Origin: Tidjanibacter sp.
GTDB taxonomy: Bacteria; Bacteroidota; Bacteroidia; Bacteroidales; Rikenellaceae
Length of the DNA: 64,000 nucleotides
Assembly (NCBI GenBank): GCA_017936605.1
Contig: JAGBFH010000022.1
Span: 916-64,915, forward strand
Direction: 5' to 3'
Part shown: piece after piece, positions 13,843 to 64,000 of the stretch
How the letters are laid out: every line of letters begins with the position of its first letter
How positions within the stretch are numbered: the stretch's first letter is position 1
Made by a program: the position numbers and the translations under genes
Notes under the pieces: model-generated
Seen by the model: only the letters and a program-made list of their open reading frames with translations
Databases searched by the model: none
What the model was told of the DNA's origin: nothing

Positions 13843-13940
13843 GCGGAGGGAATTTTGTGCCAACAAGATGGGCGAGTCCGCAGCTTACTCGAGGTAAGTG
13901 AGGAACTCGCCCATTGTAGGTGGTGCAAAATTCACCCGCG
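13843..13940 (+). repeat. Dispersed ~100-bp hairpin element A, copy 1
   Basis: CCGCAG-CTTAC-loop-GTAAG-TGAGGA core with imperfect terminal inverted repeats. Confidence 0.85.
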
Positions 13941-13955
13941 AGATGTGCTCGCGAG

Positions 13956-15509
13956 CTATTCTCTGTGGAAAATGGCAACCTTACCATCCGCCACCTCGAG
14001 GTCGATGACACGCGGACCGCGATGGACACGGTCGCTGCCCCACTCGCGCCACGAGCCCTTCGGCAAACGCACCATACGGGTAGCACCCTTGCCCACAGGC
14101 GGAGCCACAAGCCACCTCTCACCAAACATATACTGGTCGTCACAATTGGTGAAACCCTTGCGTGGGAACTCATACTCCAAGTGTCGCACAATGGGCTCGG
14201 CCGTAGAGGCGCACTGAGCCACAAGTGCCGATATGTAATCCCTATTTTCCTCGCGCCACAGTAGCACATCCTTGAGCGGCTCCAAATCCTCGAGGCCCCA
14301 GACCGCATAGGGGATAATCGCAATGGGCATCAGGGCCGCACACTGGGCCGCACGCATAACAAGCTCCCTATCGCCACCAAAGTCTATGCCCGCAGCAAAC
14401 AGAGTGCGGGGGTAGCCGAGCAGCGAGGCGTTGATGCTACGCGCCACACTCCTCTCCAGCTCCTGCCACGAATAGCGGCGCGTGGTCGACACCGAACAAC
14501 AGAGCCCATTGTCGGGCTCGCCAAGTGGCGAAGAGTAGACCGCCTCACTGATGCCCTCGCTCACACTATGCCACGCCTCGAGGTACTTTTCGACCCTCGC
14601 CAAATCGTCACCCAGAAGGCTGGTGGCATCGAGCATATCGAAGTAGAAACCATCCACACCATACTCTTTCTGGAGCCTGCGGAGCGAGGTGTTCATCTCC
14701 TCCACACACTCGGAGCAGAGCGAGCGACAGGCGGTATAGCCCAGTCGGCTCTGGAAAACTATGGGCTCACCCTTGGCGTTGGTGAGCAGTTGTCCCTCCT
14801 TGCGGCACCTCTGGTAGTTGCGACCCGCCGCCATAATGTATGGCGAGACGGTGAGCATCACGCCCATACCCTCCGCGTGGAGTTTCTCAATCATCATCTC
14901 GGGGTCGGGATAGGCCACCGCATCGAAGGTGAGTGTTCCCGAGGGGGTGTGCCAACCGATGGGGAGCAAAATGGTCCCCTTGGGCATACCGAGCCTTTCG
15001 AGTCGGGCTGCAAAGTCGAGCACATCCTGCTGGGTGTAGAGCAGCGCATCGTCGCCGCCGAGTTCATAGATAGGGGCGGTGAATAGGAAGTCCGAACAAT
15101 TAACTGTAGTGCTGTCTGCCAGATACTTGTGGTAGTTCATAATGTAGCTTTCGCGCAGCGAGCGACCCGCCTTTTCGAGCTCCACCTGCTGGCCCTCGGC
15201 AGGGGTGACAATAAGTTTTGTGCCGTCATAGCTCACCGTCACGGGCTTCTCGCTATGCAGATAGCGGCCACGATTGGAGAGCAGATGATTGGCCCTGAAG
15301 GTATTGGCCGCCAGCTCGGAGGTGTTAATCACAAAGCCCCCCTCGAAGGGTAGAGTCACCCTACCCTCGCCGGCCACCACTCCCCACCAACGCTCACCGC
15401 TAACGATGGGAATCTCCACATTATCTCTCCTATTTGAGGCCTCCGCCCCAACCACCGCGAGGGTCAGAGCCACAAGGGCGAGTATTGTTGTCTTGAAATT
15501 CACACTCAT
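13956..15509 (-). CDS. GH31-like glycoside hydrolase homologue (secreted), possibly catalytically degenerate
   Basis: Start re-assigned to MSVNFKTT signal peptide; ERWWG, SNRGRY, GW..F....YPDP..MIEKLH, GVDGFYFD, LLGYP, YMFGERWLVAP. Confidence 0.8.
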   Translation of the reverse strand: MSVNFKTTILALVALTLAVVGAEASNRRDNVEIPIVSGERWWGVVAGEGRVTLPFEGGFVINTSELAANTFRANHLLSNRGRYLHSEKPVTVSYDGTKLIVTPAEGQQVELEKAGRSLRESYIMNYHKYLADSTTVNCSDFLFTAPIYELGGDDALLYTQQDVLDFAARLERLGMPKGTILLPIGWHTPSGTLTFDAVAYPDPEMMIEKLHAEGMGVMLTVSPYIMAAGRNYQRCRKEGQLLTNAKGEPIVFQSRLGYTACRSLCSECVEEMNTSLRRLQKEYGVDGFYFDMLDATSLLGDDLARVEKYLEAWHSVSEGISEAVYSSPLGEPDNGLCCSVSTTRRYSWQELERSVARSINASLLGYPRTLFAAGIDFGGDRELVMRAAQCAALMPIAIIPYAVWGLEDLEPLKDVLLWREENRDYISALVAQCASTAEPIVRHLEYEFPRKGFTNCDDQYMFGERWLVAPPVGKGATRMVRLPKGSWREWGSDRVHRGPRVIDLEVADGKVAIFHRE

Positions 15510-15582
15510 ACGACAATTTCTCAAAAAAATCTGCGCAAGGTAGCTATTTCTCGGCAGAATGTCAAATTCCGTGCCTATACCC

Positions 15583-16359
15583 TCAGCCACGAGGTCCCCT
15601 CGGAGAGCCCCCAAAGCGGGGAAAGCGGCGAACGCTCCAGAGGGTGTTGGTGGCCGCACGGCGCAGCGACATATCGGGCGCTTCGGAGAGGCGCGAGGCC
15701 ACCGCAGGCGCATCACCAACGCCCTCAACCTGAGCCATATAGAGCTCCAGCAGTTGGAGATTATAGCAGCTCGCACCATCCCACCTCGGCATCTCCAGCA
15801 CCCAGTTTCGCATTTTGAGGACCTCCACAACACGCCCCATCTGTTGCCACGAAAGCCTATGGGGGTGCATTTTCAAGAGCGAAGCCACCTGCGAGGGCTT
15901 GGCATAGAGGACCACCAAGAGCCGAGCAAGAGCCGCACGGGCTGTGCGGAATCGGCACTCCTCCACCCTGCCCGCCGCCTGCAATGAGGGGTGGAGCCCG
16001 AGGAGCAGTTCCATAGCCTCGGCGGCACGGCGCGAGGAGATGGGGTGCCCAATGGTGCGGAGCAACATCTGCTCCACGCCCCAAGCCTGCGAAAGCACCC
16101 TCACGCGCTCGGCCCTGCACTCCACAAAGCACCCCGCAAGGGTGGCGAGCACCCGACCCGCACGCCATAGTTGCCACCTGCCACGCGGCACCACACCGCG
16201 CAGCCCCTCGGGGCCCGAGGTTGCCGAGAGAAAACCGTAAATCTCCACCGTGTGGGCCACAAGGTGGGCGTAGGACCTTTGGTTGCGGCGGTGGCGTAGA
16301 GCCACAGCCAGAGCAAGAACCCCAAACGAGGCGACAACAAAGAGAAGAACTACCTGCAT
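15583..16359 (-). CDS. Hypothetical protein with N-terminal TM helix and helical-repeat-like body
   Basis: Start re-assigned to MQVVLLF; overlaps the upstream receiver-like gene by 10 nt. Confidence 0.55.
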   Translation of the reverse strand: MQVVLLFVVASFGVLALAVALRHRRNQRSYAHLVAHTVEIYGFLSATSGPEGLRGVVPRGRWQLWRAGRVLATLAGCFVECRAERVRVLSQAWGVEQMLLRTIGHPISSRRAAEAMELLLGLHPSLQAAGRVEECRFRTARAALARLLVVLYAKPSQVASLLKMHPHRLSWQQMGRVVEVLKMRNWVLEMPRWDGASCYNLQLLELYMAQVEGVGDAPAVASRLSEAPDMSLRRAATNTLWSVRRFPRFGGSPRGPRG

Positions 16360-62171: not shown

Positions 62172-62211
62172 AAAACCTCACGGGTATCAGAAACGATACC
62201 CGTGAGGTTTT
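62172..62211 (-). terminator. groEL terminator
   Basis: AAAACCTCACGGGTATC-N6-GATACCCGTGAGGTTTT; T run on the - strand. Confidence 0.85.
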
Positions 62212-62232
62212 GCTATGTATGTTGCGCCGCGA

Positions 62233-63858
62233 TTAGTAGCCGCCCATACCGCCGGCGGGCATTGCGGGCGCGGGGTTATCCTCCTTCTTCTCGGCCAGAA
62301 CACACTCGGTGGTGAGGAACATCGAAGCGATGCTTGCAGCATTCTCCAGTGCGACCCTTGCAACCTTGGTGGGGTCGATGATGCCGGCCTCGAACATATC
62401 CTCGTAGCGGTCGGCGCGGGCGTTGTAGCCGTAGGAGCCCTCGGACTCCCTCACCTTATTCACAACAACCGAGCCCTCGCCACCTGCATTGGCAACAATC
62501 TGCCTAAGGGGCTCCTCAATGGCCCTGCGAACGATGGCGATACCGGTGGTCTCGTCGTCGTTGTCGCCCCTGAGGCCCTCGATGGCGGCTGCAGCGCGGA
62601 TGTAGGCCACGCCACCACCGGGGATGATACCCTCCTCGATGGCTGCACGAGTGGCAGCAAGTGCGTCATCCACGCGGTCCTTCTTCTCCTTCATCTCGAC
62701 CTCCGTAGCGGCACCCACATAGAGCACAGCCACGCCGCCCGCCAGTTTGGCGAGCCTCTCCTGCAGCTTCTCCCTATCGTAGTCGCTGGTGGTGCTCTCC
62801 ATCTGGTTGCGAATCTGTGTCACGCGAGCCTCGATAGCCTCGGCAGCACCCGCACCGTCAACGATGGTGGTGTTGTCCTTCGAAATGGTGACCTTGTCGG
62901 CCGAGCCGAGCATATCGATAGTGGCGGCGTCCATACGCAGACCCTTATCCTCTGAGATGACCGTACCGCCGGTGAGGATGGCGATATCCTCGAGCAGCTC
63001 TTTGCGCCTGTCGCCAAAGCCAGGAGCCTTCACAGCGGCAACCTTCAGCGAGCCGCGGAGCTTGTTGACAACCAGTGCGCTCAGCGCCTCGCCGTCCACA
63101 TCCTCGGCCACGATGAGCAGCGAGCGGCCGCTCTGTGCCACGGGCTCCAGTACGCCCATAAGCTCCTTCATAGTCGAAATCTTCTTGTCAGTAAGGAGCA
63201 CGAAGGGCCTCTCGAGCACAGCCTCCATCTTCTCGGTGTCGGTCACGAAGTAGGCCGAGATGTAGCCCCTGTCGAACTGCATACCCTCGACAACCTCCAC
63301 ATGGGTGTCGGTACCTTTGGCCTCCTCGACGGTGATGACACCCTCCTTCTTGACCTTACCCACAGCCTCGGCGATGAGTGCGCCGATGGAGTGGTCGTTG
63401 TTGGCCGAGATGGTGGCCACCTGCTCTACCTTCTCGAGGTTGTCGCCCACCACCTGGCTCTGGCTCTTAATGCTCTCAACAACGGCACCCACAGCCTTGT
63501 CGATACCCCTCTTGAGGTCCATAGGGTTGGCACCTGCGGTCACATTCTTGATACCCACACCGATGATGGCCTGCGCCAGAACGGTAGCGGTGGTGGTACC
63601 ATCACCCGCATCGTCGTTGGTTTTGCTCGCAACCTCCTTTACGATCTGTGCGCCCATATTGGCGAAGTTGTCCTCGAGCTCAATCTCCTTGGCCACAGTC
63701 ACACCATCCTTGGTGATGTGGGGTGCGCCAAACTTCTTGTCGATAATCACATTGCGACCCTTGGGGCCAAGTGTCACCTTCACTGCATTTGCCAGGGCAT
63801 CCACGCCCTCCTTGAGAAGCTCACGAGCCTCTACATTATACTTTATCTCTTTTGCCAT
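62233..63858 (-). CDS. groEL: Chaperonin GroEL
   Basis: [37 protein letters not shown] tail. Confidence 0.99.
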
Positions 63859-63904
63859 ATCCTTTGGTCGGTTTTTAGTTTCACTTTTCTGTCGGCTGTG
63901 CCTT

Positions 63905-64000
63905 GTGGGTGATTTCCGTGTTACGCTTTTGTTTTGTCTTCCTCATTTGCTCCCGAGCAAACTGCGGAGTCAAAACAAAACCAAGCCTTGAAATCCCCTC
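63905..64000 (-). repeat. Hairpin element A, copy 9 (reverse orientation, runs to the window edge)
   Basis: Reverse complement: TTTTGTTTTGACT-CCGCAG-TTTGC-TCGGGA-GCAAA-TGAGGA-AGACAAAACAAAA. Confidence 0.8.

Follow-up and report, generated by a model that had tools for sequence, protein, structure and literature searches.

Element A, a hairpin-forming interspersed repeat of Rikenellaceae at stop codons and with replication-linked polarity

The stretch analysed here (the window) comprises 64,000 nucleotides of contig JAGBFH010000022.1 from a Tidjanibacter sp. genome and contains nine copies of Element A, a sequence that folds into a long hairpin, recurs throughout the genome, typically abuts the stop codon of a convergent gene and keeps its better-folding strand in a fixed relation to replication; these rules of position were observed in two genera. 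According to our preferred reading, which we hold at a probability of about 0.55, Element A is a hairpin-forming DNA repeat that is interspersed in Rikenellaceae chromosomes and non-autonomous, is similar in kind to REPINs/BIMEs, ERIC and Correia elements, and is kept via single-stranded DNA.

Copy number, anatomy and covariation

The genome is a Tidjanibacter metagenome-assembled genome (MAG) of 1.88 Mb in 25 contigs with 99.6% completeness, and its NusA is 93-94% identical to that of MAGs labelled Tidjanibacter sp. or uncultured Alistipes sp. An nhmmer search of the genome, seeded with seven window copies of Element A, yielded 91 copies at E<1e-8. A covariance model of the element (R1), used as a second locator, found at least 85 copies in the same genome, so that the genome-wide search suggested in an initial annotation of this DNA was productive with both methods. 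In the window, nhmmer and R1 agreed on nine copies and no further ones, recovering all of those that had been listed before (Table 1). The length of ~100 bp given at that time was too short, as pairing of the palindrome reaches 12-15 nt farther outward on each side and gives a full length of ~125 nt. Near-identical copies were found at unlinked loci, and several contigs break or end inside copies. Gene calls were made with a home-made simple open reading frame (ORF) scorer, which returned 1448 genes and 85% coding sequence and is approximate.

Folding revealed each copy as one long imperfect hairpin of nested stem modules, arranged from outside to inside as outer module, arm module, highly variable middle stem and conserved apex, and occurring in free combination. 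The outer module exists in self-complementary versions (AAAAACGCATAGA/TATATGCGTTTTT, GAGTGCATATC/GAGATGTGCTC and GAGCGGGTTTT/AAGGCACGCTC). The two arm subfamilies of the initial annotation were also seen in the alignment of copies, with GGGAATTTT(T/G)TGCC...GGTG(A/C)AAAATTCACCC in subfamily 1 and GGGGATTTCAAGGCTTG...AAGCGTAACnnGGAAATCACCC in subfamily 2. The apex is the sole strictly conserved part; it consists of 5' (AA)CCGCAG, a 5-bp stem, a loop, a 5-bp stem and TGAGGA(TT), and in its fold GCA faces GA across an asymmetric internal loop, the closing G·T/G·U pair is invariant and an A is bulged. The compensatory apical stems described previously (TTTAC/GTAAA, TTTGC/GCAAA and CTTAC/GTAAG) were confirmed and joined genome-wide by a fourth type, CCTAC/GTAGG, while CATAC/GTATG and CGTAC/GTACG were additionally found in other genera.

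When 74 distinct copies of the own genome were analysed with RNAalifold, 31 pairs were predicted, 24 of which had changed on both sides. Among 29 copies from other species or genera, 96.4% of the cells were paired compared with 65% in shuffles, and 270 cells had changed on both sides (shuffles, 72; slid controls, 42-60); this alignment was model-fitted and its counts are therefore biased towards structure. The closing G·U pair of the apical stem was present in 29/29 of these copies. The earlier proposal that the hairpin is kept by compensatory change agrees with both data sets, and by these changes pairing is shown to be important within a single strand. Covariation alone does not prove selection on RNA, because the arms of a palindrome can be re-copied in one step, template switching copying one arm from the other.

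Some copies depart from the usual arrangement. At contig C7:42572-42668, the arms are the usual way round and the apical core (TCCTCA...CTGCGG) is inverted, as expected from arm-arm recombination. At contig C4:89300-89365, the outer-module 12-mer AGATGTGCTCGC occurs at least four times in tandem and is translated into the 3' end of the adjoining ORF; the repeat therefore encodes the C-terminal tail of that protein.

Stop codons, replication polarity and strand asymmetry

A convergent gene was located on the 3' side of 79/91 copies, and in 61/91 the 3' end of the element lay -15 to +12 nt from the convergent stop, with a sharp mode. In 2000 random placements in intergenic DNA the same distance range held 1.8 copies on average and 8 at most, and the copies are thus not randomly positioned relative to genes. 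In practice the element begins 0-1 nt past the stop codon or includes it. The stop codons of host genes were TAA in 57 and TAG in 18 cases and never TGA, compared with 52/39/9% among all genes. The type of stop tracks the outer module: T-run modules go with TAA, GCTCGC modules mostly with TAG. On the gene side, the TA of TAA/TAG always precedes the end of the element, and at the far end of G-type copies there is no matching TA. This abutment may reflect a TA target (of TAA/TAG), selection for a co-transcribed but harmless position, or both. About 11 copies are found upstream of a same-strand gene instead, for example groEL, valS, hisS and rpiB. Tandem-gene contexts account for 43 copies, whose upstream flank is where the next gene starts, facing away. 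In five other genera, an ORF stop was present -11 to +9 nt from the 3' end of the element in 14 of 20 copies, the ORF being required to stay open to the end of the fetched flank.

In the window, eight copies lie at the stops of minus-strand genes, as the initial annotation had stated, and its eight hosts (GH31, obgE, tmk, sufS, sufB, infB, nusA and rimP) are supported by Pfam; the ninth copy, placed at 63905, is situated upstream of groEL. The orientation of these copies relative to the adjoining genes had been called the same, which means that the strand as written is antisense to the gene.

We refer to this strand, which folds better and has its 3' end towards the convergent stop, as the + form. 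Replication direction was taken from GC skew on the MAG contigs. Orientation of the copies was near-uniform within each contig and in step with GC skew, the + form being on the C-rich strand in 79 of the 86 copies with unambiguous skew (92%). Host genes were on the leading (G-rich) strand in 66/71 cases (93%), compared with 57% of all genes. The same polarity was observed for 13/15 copies away from stop codons, and in another genus (g38; genomes G067 and G095) 26/29 copies obeyed the rule. The structured + strand is accordingly antisense to the host gene; it is the leading-strand template and is identical in sequence to the nascent lagging strand.

The + form was more stable than its reverse complement in 86/90 copies (mean -63.9 vs -52.7 kcal/mol), its folds contained 455 G·U pairs compared with 106 on the other strand, and its composition was 27% G and 20% C despite its position on the locally C-rich strand. 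R1 scores were ~105-124 bits for the + form and ~23-34 bits for the opposite strand. This asymmetry is not a by-product of mutational skew, because cytosine deamination of the lagging-strand template or the non-template strand would put the wobbles on the other strand. With the strand bias, which is absent from the initial annotation, a single-stranded DNA substrate gains support. The polarity across genera points to a single-stranded DNA step at the replication fork, and at this step copies could be inserted, or those with the stabler hairpin on the lagging-strand template could be lost preferentially.

Distribution, turnover and candidate movers

With R1, 50 to at least 85 copies were detected in 17/24 other species of the genus and none in 7, and 16 other families of the order had almost none. 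Judged by NusA identity, the carriers are one clade: all species with at least 92% identity carry the element, those with 88-89% have divergent versions and those with 86-87% have none. Across Rikenellaceae there were matches in 27/81 genomes and 15/31 genera, and the distribution was patchy within genera.

The rimP-nusA-infB region was compared among 20 species. In element-free clades its spacers are short (12-170 nt), unique and unrelated. Within the clade of carriers, one species (G004) has an empty nusA site, and five closely related species have an empty rimP site. Six species share at nusA an outer stem (TAATTTGCTGCATCT...CAGCAAATT) that encloses inner arms of either subfamily; at infB, the sole difference between G004 and its close relatives G042 and G009 concerns the inner ~100 nt. 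An inverted copy of the final infB codons is part of the outer stem in several species. Half-units starting at the apical stem adjoin full copies, and truncated units break at CCGCAG or just past it. The high copy number, the clade-limited and patchy occurrence, the gain and loss of copies at orthologous sites, the exchange of inner hairpins, the truncated units and the near-identical copies at unlinked loci argue for a mobile or recombining DNA repeat and not for a conserved RNA gene. A strain-level look-up by exact protein gave no usable empty/filled pairs, the contigs ending in the repeat.

A variant unit, A', was observed in one to three tandem copies 5' of a full element at C1:14600-14860, C6:15750-15990, C12:110-330, C22:67600-67740, C25:31830-32100 and C7:217940-218230. 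It contains the left arm up to CCGCAG, a small hairpin, AGCGAG-TGAGGG-TGGTGCT...CCGC and then a TTTCC...GAAAG hairpin; the small hairpin has 5 bp, an AACG loop and 5 bp, with the compensatory variants GCGGC/GCCGC, GGCAC/GTGCC and GCGCT/AGCGC. Apparent solo left arms were such A' units in tandem, and split arms flanking a gene were not found. The idea that the outer stem is a prior native terminator with the element inserted in its loop was rejected as well, as the genome contains no empty outer-module hairpin and the spacers in element-free relatives are unrelated.

No known family or enzyme could be connected with the element. At gathering scores Rfam matched tRNA alone, and at E<=10 six copies gave a single chance-level match of a microRNA model on one copy; the suggested kinship to Flavo-1 thus found no backing. 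Neither the core strings nor REP-type repeats of Alistipes or Tidjanibacter are described in the searchable literature (full text), and a match to an already described family was accordingly not obtained. Y1/RAYT (PF01797) had no hit in this nearly complete genome, whereas the control was positive in 6/14 reference genomes; TnpB (PF07282) was likewise missing from the own genome and was present in 3/31 genomes of the genus with no relation to the element. The HUH/RAYT mobiliser considered in the initial annotation was therefore not recovered in these searches. IS110 transposase was absent from the genome. Tyrosine recombinases comprised XerC-like and XerD-like proteins and three integrases, none of which is an integron integrase (best TIGR02249 score 162 vs a cut-off of 265) or is encoded near a copy. 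Self-BLAST revealed no insertion sequence or other repeat of >500 bp at >88% identity in the assembly and therefore no autonomous parent element there. Likewise, nothing was found when a viral contig collection was scanned with the core pattern, a representative full copy had no BLAST match in a plasmid collection, and a search for a canonical dif site to set beside the arms gave nothing convincing.

Reverse transcriptase (RT) was rejected as mover; RT occurs in 7/31 genomes of the genus, most element-bearing genomes have none, and the sole RT here belongs to a diversity-generating retroelement (DGR) with a template/variable repeat (TR/VR) pair. This DGR is at contig C10:16900-19600 (locus L147) and encodes a 444-aa RT with an IGNNLSQ motif; in the TR/VR pair, the RT start region NNRYNSNRTRAVAEFDN is mirrored by YDRYGSNRTRAVAAFD, where the gene upstream encodes its C-terminus.

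Explanations and comparison with known systems

In the proposed process, a single DNA strand, folded and bearing the asymmetric apex, would serve as substrate of strand-specific, replication-linked copying or exchange, which would install copies beside stop codons, delete them and replace inner hairpins while the site stays fixed. Pairing of both arms in the single strand would be required, and an arm could probably be re-copied from its partner through template switching; either arm pairing or arm re-copying would yield modular compensatory changes. Since truncated units break at CCGCAG or immediately behind it, the conserved asymmetric apex is the natural candidate for recognition or cleavage. 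A T-run of at least 4 follows the hairpin in 44/87 copies in the + form and in 50/87 in the mRNA sense (both in 42), and as a side effect the hairpin with its flanking A- and T-runs probably works as a 3'-end structure or as a terminator that stops transcription from either side. This would turn former operon genes into separate units; the rimP-nusA-infB operon, once tight, was in this way probably split by the elements.

Several observations weigh against the single-stranded DNA repeat. No mobilising enzyme was found in the genome (Y1/RAYT, IS110, TnpB and IntI are absent), and neither a target-site duplication nor a clean empty/filled pair could be defined. [quoted passage not shown] The leading-strand bias of the hosts could partly be a preference for highly expressed genes, and our gene calls come from a crude ORF scorer and the replication direction from GC skew of MAG contigs.

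A selected function in the host mRNA, where a 3' hairpin would serve termination or protection from exonucleases and the element would have spread by supplying it, is in our judgement unlikely. It fits the start 0-1 nt past the stop in most copies, the stability of the hairpin even in the mRNA sense (~-50 kcal/mol) and the A-run before plus T-run after it in 42/87 copies, as in two-way intrinsic terminators; moreover, a co-transcribed yet harmless element confined between stop and native terminator would explain the tight spacing. On the other hand, the sense strand folds worse in 86/90 copies, with A·C mismatches in place of the G·U pairs of the antisense strand, and this asymmetry is opposite to the outcome of deamination on the sense (lagging-template) strand. 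Half of the copies lack a U-run, the GC-skew rule also holds away from gene ends (13/15), the insertions are in operon spacers that measure 12-170 nt in element-free relatives, and the distribution is patchy. The RNA 3' stabiliser of the adjoining gene envisaged in the initial annotation is disfavoured as primary constraint, since it is the mRNA-sense strand that folds poorly, and the wobble-paired strand (86/90 copies, 455 vs 106 G·U pairs) is antisense. Transcription of the + form itself, as antisense small RNA or as one-way terminator against head-on antisense transcription into leading-strand genes, would be in line with the constraint on the antisense strand and with the 44/87 + form hairpins that are followed by a T-run whose end coincides with the gene boundary; as + transcription is head-on to replication, it would also join the gene rule and the replication rule. 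We nevertheless regard it as quite improbable. The canonical Bacteroidota -7 promoter motif (TAnnTTTG) occurs within 150 nt upstream of the + form in only 3/87 copies, which speaks against a separate RNA gene, 43 copies look onto the beginning of a next gene that points away, half lack the U-run, and the high turnover and truncated units resemble DNA events.

Among explanations at the DNA level, a folded single-stranded recombination site like attC, in which a tyrosine recombinase such as XerC/XerD reads structure and unpaired bases of one strand, would account for inner parts that are swapped like cassettes while the outer stem is kept, and genes for XerC- and XerD-like proteins are present. 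Still, we give it little credence: the integron integrase is missing (162 vs 265 for TIGR02249), the RYYYAAC/GTTRRRY boxes are not found, the hosts are core genes in conserved order and not cassettes, and the conserved unpaired bases are near the apex and not at the base. A REPIN or a miniature element derived from IS200/IS605, moved by a Y1 HUH transposase (RAYT/TnpA), would match the REPIN-like form with two inverted arms, ~100 nt, extragenic position and tens of copies (PMC3116915) as well as the replication-strand bias, which is seen in elements transposing as single-stranded DNA. This is very improbable given that PF01797 and PF07282 are lacking in the own genome, TnpB in 3/31 genomes of the genus is unrelated, a conserved GTAG/CGTC tag is missing and the polarity, taken by the better-folding strand, would be contrary to the IS200/IS605 rule. 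More tentatively than the repeat reading, we consider Element A as the substrate of an undescribed strand-specific single-stranded DNA process at forks, either a genome-wide counterpart of attC or a new class of hairpin transposon, in which a host or unknown enzyme would recognise the asymmetric CCGCAG/TGAGGA loop and place or swap hairpin cassettes precisely at the stops of core genes on the leading strand; we regard this as unlikely.

REPINs are REP doublets with two inverted arms in ~100 nt of extragenic sequence (PMC3116915), and their REP ends carry a GTAG or CGTC tag (PMC3733652). Together with BIMEs of Pseudomonas and Enterobacteria (PMC3116915, PMC3733652) they share with Element A the long two-arm hairpin, the extragenic location, usually at the 3' ends of genes, copy numbers from tens to hundreds, predominantly vertical inheritance, turnover within genomes and a BIME-type mosaic of modules. 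In contrast to REPINs, Element A has no RAYT and no GTAG/CGTC tag, a conserved apex loop instead of conserved arm ends, a distance of 0-1 nt from the stop, an orientation tied to replication in 92% and a host in Bacteroidota. No invariant columns corresponding to the tag were present in our alignments A2 and A3, whose invariant parts are CCGCAG and TGAGG at the apex.

ERIC (IRU) and Correia (NEMIS) elements of Proteobacteria are imperfect palindromes of 100-170 bp inside transcription units (reviewed in PMC2229807). They resemble Element A as imperfect palindromes; they fold as RNA and affect their neighbours in an orientation-dependent way. Their TA target duplications and well-defined terminal inverted repeats probably set them apart, and a sequence relation is not evident, as judged without a direct test. 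To our knowledge, neither replication-strand polarity nor stop-codon abutment has been reported for them. Group IIC introns insert just 3' of genes, oriented like the gene before them, and a bias towards the lagging-strand template is reported for them. This bias matches the mRNA-sense strand of Element A, which differs from these introns by having no intron domains (no Rfam Intron_gpII match), no RT and a length of only 125 nt.

In attC sites (PMC5371416), as in Element A, structure is conserved over sequence, unpaired bases set the choice of strand, and the site directly follows ORFs; Element A indeed folds, on the strand antisense to the ORF, into a strand-specific hairpin that has unpaired bases. 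It differs by lacking IntI, R/L boxes and a cassette array, and its hosts are scattered essential core genes. The RYYYAAC/GTTRRRY boxes were absent from A2, where the ends read AAAAACGCATAGA...TATATGCGTTTTT or GAGTGCATATC...GAGATGTGCTC. Non-coding RNA arrays of UG27 RTs in Bacteroidota prophages consist of hairpin units of ~135-167 nt and give a DNA hairpin product complementary to the RNA (bioRxiv 10.64898/2026.09.22.753630). They resemble Element A in diverse sequence, conserved structure and short motifs in an asymmetric loop around a central stem, but have the motifs AUCN7UANAG/UUYA, both absent from A2, and are arrayed beside the RT and two accessory genes in prophages, whereas Element A is dispersed at core genes and mostly in genomes lacking an RT. 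Element A is thus an undescribed hairpin repeat family of Bacteroidota that probably works like REPIN/BIME, ERIC and Correia elements and appears to lack defining features of each of them and of attC.

Interspersed hairpin repeats are well studied in Proteobacteria and hardly in Bacteroidota. Here they have rebuilt the intergenic DNA of an abundant gut lineage and probably broken up an ancient operon. Any mechanism must account for three clean rules, namely stop abutment, replication polarity and the antisense position of the structured strand. For RNA discovery based on covariation the case is a caution, as very strong covariation here most likely marks a DNA hairpin and not an RNA gene. If the mover were a new enzyme or a housekeeping recombinase, it would represent a new route of single-strand DNA mobility and possibly a tool for site-specific insertion of hairpins.

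Copies in the window and neighbouring repeats

The stop codons listed in Table 1 are 0-11 nt from the end of the R1 model, or inside the model in the case of infB.

Table 1. Copies of Element A in the window and the genes they adjoin
Feature	Position	Strand	Modules and structure	R1 (bits)	Adjoining gene
Full copy	13830..13954	+	Arm subfamily 1; apical stem CTTAC/GTAAG; fold -56 kcal/mol vs -45 for reverse complement	124.4	Minus-strand GH31 gene (Pfam GH31); stop (13956-13958) 1 nt from 3' end
Full copy	25669..25792	+	Subfamily 1; stem TTTGC/GCAAA	111.5	Overlaps obg stop codon (gene 25786-26772, minus; Pfam GTP1_OBG); also adjoins plus-strand gene (24777-25673), 8 nt past its stop
Full copy	37464..37587	+	Subfamily 2 arms GGGGATTTCAAGGCTTG...AAGCATAACG; stem TTTAC/GTAAA	83.7	Terminates at tmk stop (37587-37589; Pfam Thymidylate_kin)
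5'-truncated copy	38452..38535	+	Core, right half of middle stem, right arm; no left arm; R1 match 38452-38511 = model positions 39-98; nhmmer HMM positions 34-103		SufS-type aminotransferase gene (38539-39756, minus); stop 3 nt beyond
Full copy	41782..41908	+	Subfamily 1; outer module GAGCGGGTTTTGTGG/CCACAAGGCACGCTC	116.7	sufB/D (Pfam SUFBD_core); stop (41915-41917) 6 nt beyond
Full copy	46480..46607	+	Palindrome takes in A-rich final codons of infB	119.2	infB (Pfam IF-2); ORF enters element by 16 nt; stop inside element, in its TAGCGG (46592-46594)
Full copy	49619..49743	+	Outer stem AATTTGCTG.../...CAGCAAATT	117	Starts at nusA stop (49742-49744; Pfam NusA)
Full copy	51299..51422	+	Subfamily 2	105.3	Overlaps rimP stop (51419-51421; Pfam RimP_N)
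Copy cut by window end	63890..64000	-	Subfamily 2; continues in contig C11	73.1 (5' end cut)	42 nt upstream of groEL start (63858; Pfam Cpn60)

Comparison of infB ends among 18 species revealed that infB of the window lacks the stop of its relatives (…AAGTAA) and reads at 46592-46607 to the TAG of the element (…AAAACAAAATAGCGGG), the C-terminus becoming VKKTK. Near rimP, a contig of Logan accession DRR768639 (locus L123, 1-1500) with identical RimP has a gene for an astacin-family peptidase upstream of rimP, replacing the holin gene of a phage-like operon; the boundary of this operon is therefore polymorphic among close strains.

Directly 5' (gene-distal) of most Element A copies, tandem arrays of 9-bp (and 7-bp) words were observed (TAAGGTCCT, GGGCAAAAA, GGGAGAAAT and AATTGAC), in the window at 13620-13770, 41680-41760, 46322-46450, 49534-49620 and 51187-51290. 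Together with Element A they fill the intergenic spacers. Further arrays are present at 6697-6800, 8030-8135, 17573-17845, 56188-56365 and 61866-62160. A second repeat of ~75 nt, which includes a perfect palindrome GCAGCTTTTTGTAAAAAGCTGC followed by TTTTAGGAGATACTCCGTATCTCT, was found at 38335-38409, 39778-39852, 41403-41477, 49442-49516 and 51029-51103, i.e. 20-70 nt before the start codons of tmk, sufS, a gene for a 250-aa protein, infB and nusA. Possibly this repeat is a leader or promoter module partnering Element A, with each gene as its own unit.

Window positions 43400-44400 and 45400-46400 form a ~1-kb tandem duplication with 83-92% identity, which holds two ORFs of 142 aa (43692-44120 and 45698-46126) and repeat-rich flanks. 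At 1238-1523, beside tRNA-Thr, five units of ~60 bp have shared flanks and variable hairpin cores and are unrelated in sequence to Element A.

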